Below, piece after piece: positions 1,248-29,100 of a stretch of DNA of 32,949 nucleotides; position 1 is the first letter of the stretch, and each line of letters starts with the position of its first letter. The stretch is from positions 1 to 32,949 of the IMG/VR virus record IMGVR_UViG_3300048851_000230. One strand, 5' to 3'. The position numbers were made by a program, and so were the translations under genes. This DNA comes from a virus (Duplodnaviria; Caudoviricetes). Under the pieces are notes generated by a model, which saw only the letters and a list, made by a program, of their open reading frames with translations, was not told the DNA's origin and ran no database searches.

Positions 1248-1405
1248 TATAAATAGGATGTCGTTGTAGCAGACGACGGAGTTTTCAAGGTCAAGACTAA
1301 ATATTGAATAGGAAGTGCTGTTAGGGTATCTTACTTCATATTGTCTCGAAAATGAATGGCTCACGCGTCTGCTACCGCGTGGGCCATTTTCGTTTTAGGA
1401 GATTT
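1248..1405 (+). promoter_or_regulatory. TATAAATA plus structured leader (putative attenuator) of the Prim-Pol gene
   Basis: Hairpin 1260-1277 has GTAGCA in its loop; terminator-like hairpin 1355-1388 has loop TCTGCTAC. 1266-1275 is perfectly complementary to 1366-1375. Confidence 0.6.
1355..1396 (+). terminator. Intrinsic terminator-like hairpin just upstream of the Prim-Pol RBS
   Basis: 13-bp stem AATGGCTCACGCG/CGCGTGGGCCATT (one G-U pair) followed by TTCGTTTT. Confidence 0.65.
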
Positions 1406-2326
1406 ATGGAAATTACTACGAACCCTTTTTGGACAGCGCTACCGGGTTGGTCGCTGTTTCCGCTCCGCCACCAGTCCAAGCGTCCGGTAGGATCATGGGG
1501 CGATTACATGTTCTTCCCGGCCAGCACGATCCAGCGCGAGATGTGGGCGAGCGAGTTCGAAAACTTCGGCGTCGTTACCGGCTCGGTATCCGGCCTCGTG
1601 GTCGTAGACATCGATAACGACGCGGCGTTTCTGGAGTGCGAGGCGCGCGGCCTGACAACAACCGTCACGATCAAGACGCCTCGTGGCTATCACCTCTACT
1701 ACCAGCATCCCGGTATCGCGATCTCGAACAGCGCGGGCAAGCTGGCGGATGGCGTGGACATCCGTGGCGATGGCGGGTTCTGCGTAGGTCCGGGCAGCTA
1801 TTACCGTCCGAACACCGCAGAGCGCGCACAGGGCAAGCTTGCCGGGGAATACTGGCCAGTCCCGACGATGGGTCCGGGTGAAGTCCCGTTGGCACCCCTC
1901 CCCGCGTGGATCATCGATCACCTTAAGTCGCACGAGCCAAAGGAACCGCAGGACCGTCCTACAGCGCCTGTAGGGGTCGAGACGGTCGAAGCACCGGCAA
2001 TGCCGTCTGCTTACGCTCTGGCGGCTGTGCGGGGGGAATTAGAACACTTACGCGGCACACGGTCCGGGTCGAGAAATCAGAACCTGTTCATCGCATCGGC
2101 ACGCCTTGGCGAATTCGTCGCGGCGGGATCGTTGACGCAGACCGATGCAGAACACGAATTGACGGAAGCAGCCAACGTTATCGGCCTTCCGTCCGATGAA
2201 TCCAATGCGACGATAAAGTCCGGGCTGTCGCATGGTCTACAAAAGCCCCGTGTAGCACCAACACCGAAACCCGCGATGTCAGCAGCAATGGCGCGGAAAC
2301 TACTAAAAAGCTCGAAAGGAAAGTAA
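1406..2326 (+). CDS. Bifunctional DNA primase/polymerase (Prim-Pol) with a C-terminal PriCT-like helical domain
   Basis: Motifs GVVTG..GLVVVDID, TPRGYHLYY, VDIRGDGGFCVGPGS and C-terminal GSRNQNLF. SD AGGAG before ATG 1406, not the ORF-track start 1352. Confidence 0.9.
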   Translation: MEITTNPFWTALPGWSLFPLRHQSKRPVGSWGDYMFFPASTIQREMWASEFENFGVVTGSVSGLVVVDIDNDAAFLECEARGLTTTVTIKTPRGYHLYYQHPGIAISNSAGKLADGVDIRGDGGFCVGPGSYYRPNTAERAQGKLAGEYWPVPTMGPGEVPLAPLPAWIIDHLKSHEPKEPQDRPTAPVGVETVEAPAMPSAYALAAVRGELEHLRGTRSGSRNQNLFIASARLGEFVAAGSLTQTDAEHELTEAANVIGLPSDESNATIKSGLSHGLQKPRVAPTPKPAMSAAMARKLLKSSKGK

Positions 2327-2336
2327 ATAAGAGACA

Positions 2337-3875
2337 ATGGAAAACCCAAATACACAGCCTAACCTCACACAGTCGGCAGAGGACCGGCTGAATAACTGCC
2401 AAACCCGTATCAACGAACTGCTTAAGCAATCGCCTGTGAAGATTGAGGACGTTAAGATTCTTAAAGCAGAGCGCGCACGCATTGAAAAAGAGATGCAGAA
2501 AGCGGCGCATACTTCGCTTTCCGATGACGAAGAACGCGAAGCCGTTGGCGCAATCAAAGCCGACATTCGCGAATGGCTTAAGGTCCGTAAGTTCAACTAC
2601 GTGCTGGCCAACGATCGCTATTGGCTCGACAAAGACACGCACTGGATTCCCGTCTCGGCTCAGACCCTGCTACGCGAACGTCCTACGCTATCGTCCGGGA
2701 TCGAACGCGAGTTGCTTACGAAAGTGATGCGCGAGGATAACCGGTTCTTCGACGAATGCACCTACAGCTACGATAAGGTTCCATCCGACACGCTGAACAT
2801 GATGCGTAAGGATTTCGCACCGATTGTAGAGGAAGGCGAAGCACATTGGATTTTCGATTGCGTTATCCGTTCGGTCGCAGGCGGTAAGGCGGCGAACATC
2901 TCGCACGTCGAACAGCTTATCCTTACGAAATATCTGCACCCGGAATCGACCGTGGTTCCAAGCTTGGTGTTCAACGATGGCGGCAGCACCGGTAAGGGCG
3001 TGCTGGTATCCAATATCTTGACCGCAATCTTCGGACGCTTCGGTGTCGCGGACAACCTGTCGATTGATAAGGTGACGGGACAGTTCAACGCGATGCTACA
3101 AGGTCGCGCTATCTGGTATATCAACGAGACATCACACGGCACCTACTCGCACAACAAGCTTAAGCAGATTGTCGGTTCCCCTACCATGTGGATCGAACCT
3201 AAGGGTATCAACGCCTTTGAGGTTCCGATGACGGCTTGGCTGGTCATCTCGGGGAACGGCGTAGACGGCTCTGTCCTGCTTGAAGGCAACGGCACCGATC
3301 GTCGCTGGTCGATCATCAGCGGGAACAAGAGCCTGCCAGAGCATATCGCGGACGCAGTGGGAACGACCGACGCTGAAGCGCTCGCATGGCTGCGTAAGGA
3401 AGGGCTGGCGATCCTGTCGGACCGAACACAGGCTGGACGATGGCTGGCGGCTCTGGTCGCGCGTCATGGTGACGTGAACGTGTCGGAAGGACACCACGAG
3501 GAAGATTACGCCTCGATCCGCGATCTCCAGCGCACGCTACACGATGACATGTTCCACCAGACGTTCGGACACGAAGATTTCGCCTGCATCCGCACGATTG
3601 AACTGTTCCAAGCATATCTGGACGAATGCGCGTCACTTAAGCGCAAGCCGACCGGACGGAACAAGTTTCACCAGATGGCGCGGAACTATCTGGAAAAGCA
3701 CTTCCCCGATTATGCAGGCCGCATCGCCTTCAACATCGAAATTGAAAAGACCGGGCGGACCTCGAAAGTAGAATACTACAGCCGGAACGTGAAACCGTCC
3801 GACGCAGAGTTGGCGCATAACGGTCGCGATGTCCTCCGCTCCCTCGGTTTCGGCTGGATTCCACGGGCAGATTAA
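2337..3875 (+). CDS. Primase-associated SF3-type helicase (D5-like/DUF5906-type)
   Basis: Walker A GGSTGKG, Walker B variant WYINE, EPKG, motif C ISGN and DRRW; directly follows the Prim-Pol gene. Confidence 0.85.
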   Translation: MENPNTQPNLTQSAEDRLNNCQTRINELLKQSPVKIEDVKILKAERARIEKEMQKAAHTSLSDDEEREAVGAIKADIREWLKVRKFNYVLANDRYWLDKDTHWIPVSAQTLLRERPTLSSGIERELLTKVMREDNRFFDECTYSYDKVPSDTLNMMRKDFAPIVEEGEAHWIFDCVIRSVAGGKAANISHVEQLILTKYLHPESTVVPSLVFNDGGSTGKGVLVSNILTAIFGRFGVADNLSIDKVTGQFNAMLQGRAIWYINETSHGTYSHNKLKQIVGSPTMWIEPKGINAFEVPMTAWLVISGNGVDGSVLLEGNGTDRRWSIISGNKSLPEHIADAVGTTDAEALAWLRKEGLAILSDRTQAGRWLAALVARHGDVNVSEGHHEEDYASIRDLQRTLHDDMFHQTFGHEDFACIRTIELFQAYLDECASLKRKPTGRNKFHQMARNYLEKHFPDYAGRIAFNIEIEKTGRTSKVEYYSRNVKPSDAELAHNGRDVLRSLGFGWIPRAD

Positions 3876-3885
3876 CCCTTTACCG

Positions 3886-4095
3886 TCCGGATTTAGTAGG
3901 ATTTTGATTTCTTACTCAAAATCTTACTTTCCGGATTGGTCGATAACTACCTGTTTTTCCTACATTTTATTCTTAATTAGTAAGATAGTAAGATAGTAAG
4001 ATATTTTAGAGTTGATTATAGGAAGAACGATAAACGTATTTCCATTTCTCATGCTCCGACTAAAACAAGAAGCTACTTATTACTTCTTACTATTT
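3886..4095. other. Putative replication origin: AT-rich region with iterons
   Basis: (TAGTAAGA)x3 at 3978-4001; reverse copies TCTTACT at 3910, 3922 and 4085; inverted repeat AGTAGGATTTTGA/TCAAAATCTTACT within 3886-3935; immediately downstream of the helicase. Confidence 0.7.
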
Positions 4096-4213
4096 TCGAG
4101 CAGCGCGCGGCGTGGTCTGTCAGTGCTCGGGAACATGGCGCGAGCATCGGCGGCGAGATGATATGCAGGCGCGTAGCGCCTGGACCTTCGGTCCAGCCAT
4201 CATCGCGGACACG

Positions 4214-4250
4214 AAAAAGCCCGGACCGTCTTTCGACCGTCCGGGCTTTT
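4214..4250. terminator. Bidirectional intrinsic terminator
   Basis: AAAAAGCCCGGAC-CGTCTTTCGACC-GTCCGGGCTTTT between convergent units; GAAA loop on the minus strand. Confidence 0.85.
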
Positions 4251-4421
4251 CGATGTAGATCGGCTAACTTAGAATCACCATCTACCGCAATCGTTACGAT
4301 CCTTCGTGGCAAGTTAAAAGACTATGCTTCGAGTAACGGCCACCACGTTTACCCTTCCGGGCAGGATCGTCTTTGCTAAGACCGTGATCGACCGGTCTCG
4401 GATTAAAGGCGTTACCCTCTG
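4214..4421 (-). ncRNA. Candidate ~200-nt structured ncRNA, possibly with two pseudoknots
   Basis: Bounded by minus-strand TAAATA (4431-4426) and the terminator; no credible ORF; several nested and crossing helices (see findings). Confidence 0.5.
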
Positions 4422-4457
4422 TAGCTATTTAATCAAAAGAGCCTACCGGCTGTCAAT

Positions 4458-4949
4458 TTACTTCGCCTTGGCGGCAGCAGCTTCCTTAGCCTTACGGCGT
4501 GCCTCTACCGACTCTTTGAATTTCGCGTGACGCGCTGGTGTCCACCCTGCACGGCCAGACTCACCCGCAGGCGCTGCACGCTTCTTCGTGGCCTTTACCG
4601 GCGCTTCAGTGCCATCGCCTACAAGCTGGTCGTCCAACTCGCCTGCATCAACGCTGGCCTTAAGGTGGTTCAGTGCATCCGCGAAACGCTCGGCAGGGAT
4701 TGGCAACGGGTAGACCTTACCAATCTTGATCTCGCGACCGTCCAGCGTGGGCGAAAACATCACGACATTGTTGTTCGCGCTCCACCACTTGTCCGCTCCT
4801 CGTGGCTGCTTGCCCTCGCTGAACTGCTTAATCGTCGCGTCAATTTTTTTGATGAACGGCTTACGCGCCTTGGTGGGATCGGGCGCGGTATGGTGGAAAA
4901 CATCGTGAAGCTTGGCATCAACGAGCGATAGGAAATCGGAAAGCGCCAT
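4458..4949 (-). CDS. Hypothetical accessory protein (163 aa) with a basic, Ala/Lys-rich C-terminal tail
   Basis: Clean ORF with AGGGA before the ATG and TTGACA on the minus strand at 5011-5006; contains VDAGELD and ends GWTPARHAKFKESVEARRKAK... Confidence 0.75.
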   Translation of the reverse strand: MALSDFLSLVDAKLHDVFHHTAPDPTKARKPFIKKIDATIKQFSEGKQPRGADKWWSANNNVVMFSPTLDGREIKIGKVYPLPIPAERFADALNHLKASVDAGELDDQLVGDGTEAPVKATKKRAAPAGESGRAGWTPARHAKFKESVEARRKAKEAAAAKAK

Positions 4950-5019
4950 CGTGGTTCCCCTAATTGGAAGTTCAATGACGCCGCTAAGCGCCGAACTTAC
5001 GAGCCTGTCAAGCTTAAGC

Positions 5020-5340
5020 CTATGCGTCGAACCATCGCATGTAGTGCGGTGTCATCAATCGCGCGTCATCGTGCACGGGATTCTTAGCGGCGAATTTGCC
5101 CTTTAGCGGTCCGTCCGTATGTCGCAGCCGTGCGGGTTCTACCGGCACTCCAAAGGCATCCCCGATCAACACTGCGACACGTAGCCAACGCTTGTTGACA
5201 TACACGGCGTCAACCGGCTGCGGCTTAAGCACCTTACAAACGGTCCGCTTACCGGGTCCCGCGTATGGTCGATCACATCGGACAGAACCACAGCGTGTGA
5301 CAGAGTAGCAGGGATAAGATGGACAGGGACGGTATTCCAT
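5020..5340 (-). CDS. NUMOD4-like protein with a degenerate HNH region
   Basis: YRPCPSYPCYSVTRCGSVR..KVLKP..VAVLIGDAF..RHTDG parallels the NUMOD4-HNH layout (WxxIPGYxxYxVSxxGRVR..HRLVAxAF..NHxDG). Starts 3 nt after the upstream stop. Confidence 0.55.
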   Translation of the reverse strand: MEYRPCPSYPCYSVTRCGSVRCDRPYAGPGKRTVCKVLKPQPVDAVYVNKRWLRVAVLIGDAFGVPVEPARLRHTDGPLKGKFAAKNPVHDDARLMTPHYMRWFDA

Positions 5341-5343
5341 CGG

Positions 5344-5958
5344 TTACGCGGCTTCGGCTCGCATCTCCGCCAGTCTCCGCAACCGTTCTACACGGGACTC
5401 CCGTTTGCTACCGGCTACGCGCAACCGTTCGGGTTTCGGTGAATGAGTGTCGGGATAGTCCGTCGTTTCACGAACGGTCGGCTTCCAATGCTCCGGCCTT
5501 ATTTTGTCTTTGATCGTGCCTATGAGCGCGTCTCGTTCATCCCGTAGGCGCTGCACCTCAGTAAGCAGGATGTCTATTTCGGCTTGGTAGCGATCGTGCA
5601 CACGGTCAATCCGCGCGAGCCGTCCAAGGTCCGCTTGGCTTACCATGTATGACACGGGACGCTTAGGCTTTGGTTCACGCCTAACCCTGTTCTTTGTGTT
5701 TACAGAACGCGTAGTCCAGCGGCAGTTACCCGGTTCATAGTTCCCGTCATTATCGATGCGGTCGAGTTCAAGACCATCTGCCCTTGGTCCCATATCCTCG
5801 TAAAATGCTTGGAAGCTTTCGCTCCACCGTTCGCACATAGCGATACCGCGTCCGCCATAATCTTCCCAATGGGGATGTTTATCACTCTCGCAACGATGCC
5901 TTGCACCTAACCAAGAATTGTATTCGCGCTTGTGGTCTTTAACTTTGAACTTTGTCAT
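5344..5958 (-). CDS. Phage HNH-family endonuclease-like protein with a C-terminal coiled coil
   Basis: YGGRGIAMCERW..SF..F..DMG.R...LDRIDNDGNYEPGNCRW signature; ATG 5958 is the likely start. Confidence 0.85.
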   Translation of the reverse strand: MTKFKVKDHKREYNSWLGARHRCESDKHPHWEDYGGRGIAMCERWSESFQAFYEDMGPRADGLELDRIDNDGNYEPGNCRWTTRSVNTKNRVRREPKPKRPVSYMVSQADLGRLARIDRVHDRYQAEIDILLTEVQRLRDERDALIGTIKDKIRPEHWKPTVRETTDYPDTHSPKPERLRVAGSKRESRVERLRRLAEMRAEAA

Positions 5959-6068
5959 TGACAGAGTGTAAATTAATCGACGCCGAAAAATCAATAATAT
6001 AGCTTTTTCGACCTTAAGTAGGGCATAATTCTTTTAGAGGATAAAATAGAGTATAGGAGGAACACAGA

Positions 6069-6251
6069 ATGACTAACACTAAAGACTACGTAGTTCAGCA
6101 TCGGATATCGCGTAGCATTGTCGAGGACCGCGCATTTGATTTGGCTGCATACATTCACCGTATGACCGATCCCGAAGATGCTGACTACCCGCGCGACTTT
6201 GACACGCTTACTATCAAGTTCGTCGCGTTTGATAGTGAGGTGGCAGCATGA
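6069..6251 (+). CDS. Hypothetical protein (60 aa)
   Basis: Strong SD AGGAGG; first gene of an operon linked by ATGA-type overlaps. Confidence 0.7.
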   Translation: MTNTKDYVVQHRISRSIVEDRAFDLAAYIHRMTDPEDADYPRDFDTLTIKFVAFDSEVAA

Positions 6252-6547
6252 CAGCCATTGAATTTCTAATCCACGAGGTTGCGCATTCTCATTTTTGGGA
6301 ACGCATGGAAGTCGGCAACCTTGAAGTGTTGGAGGCGGACGAAGATACGTGGATTGCAAACCGTCGCGACAAGCTTCGCGAGATGGTCGCAACGTGGGAT
6401 GATACCCGCGAAGCAGACTACGATATGGACGAAGCTCTGGAGGATGTTCCTACGACCTTGCAAGAGCGTCACGAGGATTTGACGACCGCGCTAACAGCCG
6501 CGCTCGACCATCTGGTAGCGCTTAGCAATCGTGGTGCACGATCATGA
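6248..6547 (+). CDS. Hypothetical acidic protein (99 aa)
   Basis: ATGA overlaps with both neighbours. Confidence 0.7.
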   Translation: MTAIEFLIHEVAHSHFWERMEVGNLEVLEADEDTWIANRRDKLREMVATWDDTREADYDMDEALEDVPTTLQERHEDLTTALTAALDHLVALSNRGARS

Positions 6548-20022: not shown

Positions 20023-20690
20023 GGGACGGCACAACGCAAGCCGTTCTGGATATCCTTGCGGCTAACGGAATCACGACAGCGCTTCTCGCGCGGCTGGATT
20101 TTGGAAGCGAAACCATCTGCATCTGGACAGGCGCGCACCCGATTACCGTTCAAGGCACCGGGGATTCGTATTTGGACGGTAAGACGTTCGAACCGCTGGC
20201 GTCCGGTGTCGCGGTCTCGATCGGTGACAACAGCTATTCGTATTCAGGCGCGGATGCGATGACCATCACCTTAGGGATACCGGCTTCGCAGTCCGTTTCT
20301 ATAGCGGCCTCACAGGTCACCAGCGACGAATATCGCGGACGGCCTGCCACGCTCTGGCGTTCGCTACTCGTGATGCCTCTGGACCCGCTGGCGGAACCGA
20401 CATGGATATTCCGTCGCGTTCGCGCAGGCGCAATGGACAAGCTGGAAATCACGAACGACGGCTTAAGCCATCAATTCTCGCTTACGATCGAAGCACACGC
20501 ATCGTTGATCTCCAACGCTACCGGCTCGACTTATCTCGACCAAAAGACGCGGTTCGACCCTACGGACACTTCGCAGGACTATGCAGCGAGTATCGGCAAT
20601 CCAGCCCCTACGTCCGGTAGCACAATTAGCAGCGGTTACGCGGGCGGTAGTGGCGGTAGCCAATACAACAGCGCCATGAACATAGCCTAA
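20019..20690 (+). CDS. Minor tail/hub protein
   Basis: GTGA coupling; LDF....IW.G, YRGRPA.LW, G.MD, DQ..RF.P.D. Confidence 0.65.
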   Translation: MRDGTTQAVLDILAANGITTALLARLDFGSETICIWTGAHPITVQGTGDSYLDGKTFEPLASGVAVSIGDNSYSYSGADAMTITLGIPASQSVSIAASQVTSDEYRGRPATLWRSLLVMPLDPLAEPTWIFRRVRAGAMDKLEITNDGLSHQFSLTIEAHASLISNATGSTYLDQKTRFDPTDTSQDYAASIGNPAPTSGSTISSGYAGGSGGSQYNSAMNIA

Positions 20691-26138: not shown

Positions 26139-29100
26139 ATGGCCCTTATCTCTGTCGGGCAGTTGTCGATCGTTGATGCGAACGACGGACTGTCAGCGCA
26201 ACTTACTTCTAACTCAATTGTCCTCCCGGCAGACGCAGCGGGTAACGTCAACTCTTACGCGGGCGCTGAAACGTCCTTCACGATATACGAAGGCGGCGTG
26301 GATATGTCCTCTAAGTGGGGATACTTCGTAAGCGCGACTGGTGGCGGTGTAACTTACCGCGATATCAACGACGCGGTTAATCGCTCGGACACTGGACCGA
26401 CGAACGGCGTTCTCGACTCCAACTACCTTAAGGTCACCAGCCTTACGCAATCGCTATCGTGGATCGACATAACCGCGACCCGTGCGCAGCAGCAGAACAT
26501 CGTCCGCCGCTACAGCATCGCTAAGGCCAATACAGGCGCTACAGGCACCAGAGGCACCCTCACAGCCACGCGCGCCATCGCGGGTGGTGTCTGGGTAGAT
26601 GCAGACGCAGCAACGGCTATCGCGGGCATTGGCGGCGGTTCTCCGATCAACGGGGATATCGTCACGCTCTTCCGTGCCTCCCCGGTCTTTTCCGAAACGC
26701 GTGTATTCAACGGAACCGCATGGATCACGATGGCCGCATATCTTGCGGGGTCGCAAATCATCGATGGATCGGTAAGCGGCGGTAAGCTTATTGCACAGTC
26801 GATTACTGCAACGCAGATCGCGGGCAGCACGATCACTGCAAACCAAATCGCGGGTAGCACAATCACCGCAAACCAGCTTGCCGCGAACACGATTACGGCA
26901 GCTAAGATTGCGGGTAACACGATCACAGCCGCACAGATCGCAGGCAACACCATCACGGCTGCACAGATTGCCGCTAACACGATCTCGACAAGTCGGCTCG
27001 CCGTTTCCGATTTCACCAACTACGCGGCGAATGGCGACCTGTCGCTGGGCAACGTTAATTGGTCCAATCTGGTAATTACCGATGCTACCAACGCGTATAA
27101 CGGAACGAACGTAATTGCGCTTCCTCCTGCTGCATCGGCGCGATACGCGAGCAATGATAACGTATTCAGCGTTAAGGGCGGCGACCAATTCTATTTGGAG
27201 TGGTGGGGTAAAGCCGGGTCCGACATGGATTCGAACTTTAACGTTTACCTTCGTGTGAACAATGCGGCTGGTGCACAGGTCCAGACCATCAACGTTGGCA
27301 GCATCAACGCAGCGCAGAAAGTCTACACGCTGGTTTCAGGGTCCGCGACGATCACCGCCACGGGCTACACCGCGTATCTCCAAATCAACTATAACAACAC
27401 GGTCGGCACCGGTTATATCGGCTTGGTTCGTCTGCGTCGTAAGAACGAAGGAAGCTTAATCGTTGATGGCGCGATTAGCGCTAATCAACTTTCCGCGCTT
27501 GCTGTCACCACTGATAAGCTGGCCGCTGGTGCAGTTACAGCAGACAAGCTTACGGCCAACTCGGTCACTGCGAACAAGCTTACGTTGTTGAGCCGTCCGA
27601 TCTCAACAATCGGCATTAACATGCGGGTCAACGCGTCTGGTTCGATGGATTGGGACGCAGGTCAAATCCGCACCATAGATGCGGCTGGTGCGATGATCTC
27701 TTACAGTGTTACGGCTGCGTCTAACGTCGCTTACAATGGATCGACGATCTATTTCTTTTTCATGCCGGGTCGGACTGGCATCGATTACAACAACGACCCG
27801 GCGAACCTTATCAATCCCGGTTACATTCCGCTCGCTGTCTGGAAAGGCGCGAGCGACCTTACGGTTATGTCTGGTGTCGGGACTTCGATTAACGGCGACC
27901 AGATTGTTGTCGGATCGATTAGCGCTAACAAGATTAAAGCCAACTCAATCACCGCCAACGAAATCGCAGGCGGCACCATCACGGGCGACAAGCTTGTAGC
28001 CGGGACCATCACGGCTGCACAAATCGCGGCGGGCGCTATTGTTGCTTCGAAGCTGGCAATCGGTAACAGCGACAACATAGTCCCTGATAGCGATATGCGC
28101 GACGTTACGTTTTGGATTGGCGACACTCCAACCGCGCTGGTCTATCAAGGCGACCAGAACGGCGGCTGGCCTTTCTCCCGTTACTTGCGGTTCAACACCA
28201 CAGGTGGCGCTTTCAGATATAGTGGACGCCCATTTCCTGTCGAACCCGGCGCTACCTATAAAATCAAACTCGGTATCTACATCGGTGGATCGACTGCCAA
28301 CACGTGGTTCAATCCGCTAATCAATGTTCCTTATGTTTCCAATATGTCGCTTAAGAGCGGCGCGAACGTGGCAACACCAGCGGCAGCAGATGCAACTAAC
28401 GGATATGTTGGTAATGTAGACTCGCGTTCTACGGAGTTCATCTTTACCAACCCTACTGGCATCACAGATAACGCAAACAGACTGCTAAGGTTTGAGTTCT
28501 ACGGAGACTTGCAAGGCGCTTACGTCGAATTCATGGTCTCGATGGTCCGCGTGTCGGATAACACGTTGATCCAAGACGGCGCGATCACGACCACGAAGAT
28601 TACCGTCAACTCGCTTAACGGTGACCGCATAAAGGTTGGCACGCTTGACGCTGATAGGATTAGCGCTACTTCCGTTCTGTCGAATACCATTACAGTATCG
28701 GGCGCATCAACGCTCGCTAACGCCTTCACCTCCGCAACGTGGGCCGGTGTCAGTGGAACGGGCAAGCCTGCCGACAACGCGACTGTAGGCGCACCAGCGG
28801 GGACCTACGTTGGCACGCAACTCGCACAGGACATGGTTACGGATGTCGCGAACGCGAAGGCGGCGGTCGGGCAGATCGCGAACGACAACGTTCTATCGAT
28901 CAACGAGAAGTCGGATATTATCCGCGAATGGAACCGCATCGATTCCAGCCGCACGAACCTTGGCGCACGTCTTGCCGCGCTCGGTTTGTCCAGAGCGGCT
29001 ATTGATACGGCTTACACGGCGCTGCAAAGCTATCTGGTAAGTTTGACGCCTGCGTGGTCGGACGTAACGCTTAACACGCCGATCGTTGGCGCGACCTTCC

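Follow-up and report, generated by a model that had tools for sequence, protein, structure and literature searches.

The window, that is the whole stretch of 32,949 nt of IMG/VR virus record IMGVR_UViG_3300048851_000230 that we analyzed, represents most of the genome of a tailed phage (Duplodnaviria; Caudoviricetes). In addition to two replication genes, which are oriented rightward (Table 1), it contains terminase, portal, protease, and HK97-type capsid genes and a long-tail module. A leftward accessory block consisting of an HNH gene, the gene for a 163-aa protein, and the candidate RNA studied here converges on the replication genes and is separated from them by an AT-rich tract. The family of the 163-aa protein has 199 representatives at E-values of up to 0.001. 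Because the named relatives of this protein belong to Sphingomonas and Sphingobium, and homologues are present in 58 of the 401 sphingomonad genomes searched, the host of the phage is probably a sphingomonad.

Table 1 Genes, signals, and predicted RNA elements at the locus (positions in the window; the strands of a helix are separated by a slash or by "with")
Feature	Position	Strand	Description
Primase-polymerase gene	1352-2326		Rightward replication gene
Helicase-like protein gene	2337-3875		Rightward replication gene
Bidirectional intrinsic terminator	4214-4250	both	16-nt arms 4250-4235/4230-4215, GAAA loop
Candidate small RNA	4214-4421	minus	~208 nt; 5' end placed from the promoter-like site
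Hairpin P5	4285-4280/4260-4255	minus	6 bp; loop contains 4270-4264
Three-way junction	4296-4370	minus	P3, GGAA-loop hairpin, and P4
P3	4370-4363/4303-4296	minus	8 bp; pair probabilities 0.67-1.0
P4	4347-4343/4309-4305	minus	5 bp, closes 33-nt loop 4342-4310; probability ~0.55
GGAA-loop hairpin	4362-4359/4354-4351	minus	4 bp; pair probabilities 0.96-1.0
Hairpin P2	4399-4393/4384-4378	minus	7 bp, 8-nt loop; pair probabilities 0.84-0.96
Putative pseudoknot 1	4417-4410 with 4338-4331	minus	8 bp; complementarity real, within chance
Putative pseudoknot 2	4317-4311 with 4270-4264	minus	3' strand in P5 loop; within chance
Promoter-like site	4456-4427	minus	TTGACA 4456-4451, 18-nt spacer, TTAAAT 4432-4427
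163-aa gene	4458-4949	minus	Upstream neighbour; mRNA would read through the candidate RNA
Matching promoter-like site of 163-aa gene	4985-5011	minus	TTGACA-N18-TTA, 36 bases before start codon
HNH gene	5344-5958		Start ATG 5958 (204 aa), not TTG 5994

Directly past the helicase gene, the AT-rich tract (3878-4100, GC 0.27-0.36) contains a long inverted repeat at ~3882-3940 (z -5.7) and three 10-nt repeats with a spacing of 8 at 3978-4003, the complement of which occurs again at 3901-3931 and 4085-4096. This tract is likely the replication origin.

Coding potential, promoter-like site, and terminator of the stretch

All six reading frames of 4253-4421 have negative codon scores (-0.26 to -0.67; for comparison, +0.12 to +0.16 for three real-looking neighbours and -0.10 for the HNH gene, which is also real), and none of the three ORFs overlapping the candidate RNA is a called protein. 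On these scores we rejected a protein-coding reading of 4253-4421, in agreement with the preliminary description, in which no ORF was considered credible. The candidate RNA is absent from Rfam 15: a scan of the window against its ribozymes, riboswitches, small RNAs, and antitoxins, a check that the preliminary description had proposed, gave no match at the gathering threshold and four sub-threshold matches (E 0.5-3.8), each driven by the terminator. Known ribozymes and riboswitches were rejected on this basis, and tmRNA because ARAGORN called no tRNA or tmRNA genes. We also rejected a guide RNA for the HNH gene, because that gene is 900 bases away and encodes a phage HNH protein of the ordinary kind, without signs of belonging to an RNA-guided family.

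A perfect TTGACA, overlooked in the preliminary description, begins one base past the stop codon of the 163-aa gene. The TAAATA noted previously is indeed present at 4431-4426 and offers an alternative -10 element one base on (19-nt spacer), making the register ambiguous. A scan with the sigma-70 consensus called no promoter at this site, and the -10 element at 17 nt is not canonical. In alphaproteobacterial promoters, as characterized in PMC8407463, the TTG of the -35 element is kept, the T at -7 is mostly absent, and a 17-nt spacer is commonest; judged against these features, the site is a credible but not an ideal promoter. The window has 10 TTGACA sites, two of which fit the pattern TTGACA-N18-TTA; both head a leftward unit. 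The expectation is 0.14, a figure that overstates the case because the pattern was drawn from the same two sites. A 151-base relative contig from another run spans 4401-4491 with 14 differences; the six that are listed leave the TTGACA unchanged and all lie in the 18-nt spacer, and the eight that are unplaced could fall in the first 30 bases of the RNA.

At the other end of the stretch, the previously reported strong terminator was recovered with U-tracts of U5 on the minus strand and U4 on the plus strand. One relative contig has 7 differences over the 242 bases of 3994-4235; in the contigs from the three other runs, 4248-4400 is outside the coverage. Because rightward transcripts coming from the helicase gene would end here as well, the terminator alone does not argue for a separate RNA; the need for a terminator between convergent units would explain it without one. 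It is the first strong hairpin past the stop codon of the 163-aa gene, 205 nt downstream. Since the mRNA of this gene thus meets no strong hairpin before the terminator, the stretch is a 3' UTR in any case, as the preliminary description had suggested as an alternative. We conclude that 4214-4421 is likely a small RNA gene, because the stretch is non-coding, has a promoter-like site at one end and a strong terminator at the other, and matches no catalogued RNA family. No RNA sequencing run was among the runs listed as carrying the stretch; the best of these runs is a soil metagenome, possibly the source of the uncultured phage.

In the gap upstream of the 163-aa gene (4960-5340), which contains the promoter-like site of that gene, the codon score of a 106-aa frame is negative, and this frame is not among the called proteins; the gap also has one local structure on the minus strand at 5100-5219 (z -3.2). 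The HNH protein has a long C-terminal extension that looks helical.

Nested fold and crossing helices

The hairpin P2, the 8-bp helix P3 with the helices enclosed by it, and the last hairpin, P5 (GUAGAU/AUCUAC), were all recovered where they had been described (Table 1). With the terminator included, the fold of 4210-4425 has a z-score of -4.0 (0 of 200 shuffles as good); the body without the terminator (4253-4421) has a z-score of -1.9 (8 of 213 shuffles as good), and 120-nt windows within the body have z-scores of -0.5 to -1.4. The nested fold is therefore moderately unusual, with much of the z-score of -4.0 due to the terminator. Folding is more favourable on the minus strand (-53.7 kcal/mol) than on the plus strand (-44.1 kcal/mol), and the minus strand carries GNRA loops and G-U pairs.

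Both crossing complementarities proposed in the preliminary description are present, and in an unbiased search the best two-pseudoknot structure contained the same two crossing helices, supporting that the original structural reading was sound. The argument that crossing helices at this density suggest a functional RNA did not hold up, because three shuffle tests placed them within chance (p 0.11-0.17). Specifically, in constrained folding the energy of the two-pseudoknot structure was reached by 27 of 213 dinucleotide shuffles, and the gain of the pseudoknots over the nested fold was smaller than the shuffle mean; the score of the optimal helix packing was reached by 386 of 2573 and 830 of 5092 shuffles; and with the nested scaffold fixed and the loop bases shuffled, 2612, 3875, and 3978 of 23848 shuffles did as well as the best single crossing helix, the best pair, and the best triple, respectively. 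Because these tests score stacking energy only, the pseudoknots, which are no better than chance in a single sequence, are unproven candidates rather than excluded ones. The hexamer that forms most of the 5' strand of pseudoknot 1 occurs twice in the RNA (4415-4410 and 4297-4292), so that either copy could pair with the loop strand 4338-4333. Of the earlier proposal of a folded functional RNA, what remains is a discrete minus-strand RNA, which is plausible given the non-coding stretch, the promoter-like site, the terminator, and the GNRA loops; the support drawn from the crossing helices is lost.

Homologues of the 163-aa gene and searches for the RNA

Genes of the 163-aa family are often monocistronic and in some cases arranged in tandem with a paralogue; one member, P0087, is a fusion in which a DNA methyltransferase domain comes first. 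The 163-aa protein matched no Pfam or PHROG family, and fold searches with its predicted model gave no clear match (best Z 4.9). One relative is 83% identical and encoded on a 41-kb contig. With a loose hairpin test, a hairpin was found within 60 nt of the stop codon in 33 of 36 homologue loci, compared with 205 nt here (the 36 include a nearly identical pair, L001 and L002, and at one of the three loci without such a hairpin the contig breaks off); many of these hairpins have U-tracts. By the same loose test, a terminator lies directly behind the gene in five of five upstream paralogues, and at three loci (L195, L196, and L215) two paralogues are set apart by a terminator plus TTGAC. The candidate RNA was found at none of the homologue loci searched (8 loci; 31 loci, including three repeats; covariance model), and the 59 genomes chosen for the 163-aa family gave one partial match at chance level. 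The single locus from a metagenome scan has 54% identity and ends 124 bases past the gene. Because the homologues end in a terminator at once, and given the arrangement at L195, L196, and L215, the 205 extra bases look like a cassette that was added behind the 163-aa gene in this lineage, not like an obligate partner. The link to the protein encoded at 4458-4949 that had been put forward in the preliminary description is not supported, as none of the homologue loci searched showed the RNA.

In our searches, from which very near records may have been missing, we found no full-length homologue of the candidate RNA, and on this sequence evidence it is known from one phage lineage. Using blastn, we obtained one short chance match in 50,697 phage records, four in 72,556 plasmid records, and nothing beyond matches of 17-48 bases in 4 plus 401 sphingomonad genomes. 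A covariance model built from the single sequence, and hence of limited sensitivity, gave one, one, two, and no weak hits in partly overlapping sets of 59, 151, 151, and 151 genomes, respectively. Three covariance-model hits (L338, L420, and L421) were rejected because they lie inside reading frames, and a further candidate (L337) because the RNA core is absent. Pattern scans of viral contigs gave no RNA by blastn and nhmmer in two of 64 parts (120 loci), no full-length relative by the covariance model in 21 of 64 parts (120 loci), and no full-length relative in all 64 parts (81 loci), where the best hits, L364 and L406, were rejected as coding. The RNA was also not found at the 45 viral-contig loci with terminase relatives, mostly 24-39% identical. 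No helicase relative was found in the 401 genomes, cultured phages, or viral contigs; helicase proteins that are 72-80% identical are present in protein collections, documenting that close phage relatives exist.

Our literature searches, one of them aimed at this host group, did not turn up the candidate RNA. In PMC10690425, a catalogue of phage RNA candidates of 29-151 bases, five short motifs are absent from six supplementary files, with three further files outside the search.

Possible functions and comparison with known RNAs

Taken jointly, the readings in which the stretch yields a discrete functional RNA, whether it acts by base-pairing, by its shape, or as a partner of the 163-aa protein, appear somewhat more probable than not. 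Our working hypothesis, which we favour tentatively, is that a free small RNA of ~208 nt regulates mRNAs in trans through the 33-nt loop closed by P4. We take base-pairing as the likeliest mode of action because, according to PMC12197685, most characterized phage small RNAs act in this way. Host polymerase would transcribe the RNA from the TTGACA at 4456, starting near 4421, and the RNA would be released at the terminator common to the 163-aa mRNA and to rightward primase-helicase transcription. The RNA would have been gained as an accessory gene behind the 163-aa gene, and would pair with mRNAs through the loop, which the crossing helices, if formed, would mask and unmask. The best target candidate within the genome would be the mRNA of a tail gene at ~20574-20597, and this candidate is weak. 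The two best ungapped matches of the 33-nt loop elsewhere in the genome, at 27883-27901 (17 of 19) and 20577-20597 (18 of 21), are both antisense to late-gene mRNA, with scores equalled in 8% and 16% of 642 shuffles. The predicted duplex with the tail-gene mRNA has an energy of -33.0 kcal/mol (15 of 529 shuffles as good) and lies deep in coding sequence; the match is post hoc, the segment being one of three tested. Duplexes of other 33-mers of the RNA are as stable or more so, and we treat the match as a weak lead only.

The same locus could be read as nothing more than a long 3' UTR of the 163-aa gene, or as a spacer left by an insertion, that ends at the terminator between the convergent units and the helices of which are incidental or stabilize the mRNA. 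The lack of a strong hairpin between the stop codon and the terminator, the chance-level pairing capacity of the crossing helices, the weak z-scores of the body windows, and the lack of a homologue in our searches all fit this reading. Nevertheless, we regard it as somewhat unlikely, because a perfect TTGACA lies behind the stop codon with a downstream TTA as at the gene's own site, the listed changes in the relative contig are confined to the spacer, and homologous genes manage without such a UTR. It is less likely still that a compact, doubly pseudoknotted RNA acts by its shape as a ligand or decoy of a host protein, for example a nuclease with a role in defence or an RNA chaperone. No crossing helix beats the shuffle control, and the RNA has neither a repeat array like that of pseudo-ToxI nor a match to an Rfam antitoxin or ribozyme; on the other hand, unbiased searches chose the same two crossing helices, pseudoknot 1 is present in both optimal helix sets, and the crossing helices use loops of the scaffold and leave the nested fold intact. 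In addition, a third loop-loop pairing of 5 bp (4389-4385/4277-4273, within a 6-bp helix) is possible, and the GNRA loops and the three-way junction may suit a tertiary fold. The more specific proposal of a new class of phage RNA, with a ~170-nt core, a three-way junction, two or three loop-loop pseudoknots, and its own promoter, that is carried as an accessory gene and serves as a decoy for a defence or RNA-binding protein of the sphingomonad host is decidedly doubtful.

We also considered a role in cis in replication, in which transcription is directed toward the probable origin (3880-4210) and the promoter-terminator pair sets local supercoiling or insulates this origin. The AT-rich tract with its repeats and inverted repeat, followed by a cluster of short hairpins directly beyond the terminator, would be in line with such a role, and PMC12197685 describes a precedent in lambda, in which pO, the promoter of OOP RNA, matters for replication although OOP is no primer. 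This role is nonetheless improbable: the strong terminator halts the RNA ahead of the hairpin cluster, so that the RNA cannot prime there, and the origin is itself a prediction. Finally, the RNA and the 163-aa gene are adjacent and co-oriented, and the protein has a basic C-terminal helix, as might be expected if the two were partners in the manner of a protein-RNA toxin-antitoxin pair. In type III toxin-antitoxin systems the RNA comes first and the toxin gene follows, the reverse of the gene-then-RNA order here; because, moreover, the homologue loci examined have no match to the RNA and homologues end in a terminator at once, we consider a partnership highly improbable.

Returning to a trans-acting small RNA, there is a likeness to RNAs made from the ends of genes. 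MicL is reportedly transcribed from within cutC, and DapZ is a 3'-end small RNA with its own promoter. Like RNAs of this type, the candidate has a terminator shared with the mRNA of the upstream gene, and the promoter that they have at the end of that gene may correspond to the TTGACA behind the stop codon, with its ambiguous -10 element; the candidate differs from them in being phage-borne, longer, and more branched, and has no sequence relation to them. OOP lies on the opposite strand near replication genes, and in this respect resembles the candidate RNA. Together with PreS of lambda, VpdS of VP882, and sar, it is likewise a short non-coding phage unit in an accessory region (PMC12197685); in contrast to these RNAs, the candidate is predicted only, does not run antisense to a gene that it overlaps, and lacks an Rfam match. 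Pseudo-ToxI of phage PhiTE and the type III antitoxins (PMC3594212) share with it a phage origin, possible pseudoknots, and possible action by shape, whereas the putative pseudoknots of the candidate are long-range and no toxin gene lies downstream. An array of ~36-nt pseudoknot repeats is not present, as no such direct-repeat family was found in 3800-6500, and downstream of the RNA and its terminator there is only a 79-aa frame, which has a negative codon score and runs through the terminator.

Overall, it is plausible that the stretch is a phage small RNA gene specific to this lineage that also serves as a 3' UTR, with putative pseudoknots and a putative function. According to PMC12197685, most of the small RNAs known from phages belong to enteric and Vibrio phages; a sphingomonad phage RNA cassette, if true, would add a host group that has been poorly sampled, and the pseudoknots, if real, would constitute a new RNA fold.

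Just beyond the terminator, 4150-4205 contains two abutting perfect triloop hairpins (4169-4181 and 4181-4197) within a longer stem, a pair that would form a three-way junction in single-stranded DNA or RNA. The hairpins are unchanged in a relative with 97% identity, and a contig whose flanks are unlike those of the window retains 4163-4207 with four differences. They are possibly a primase or origin signal.
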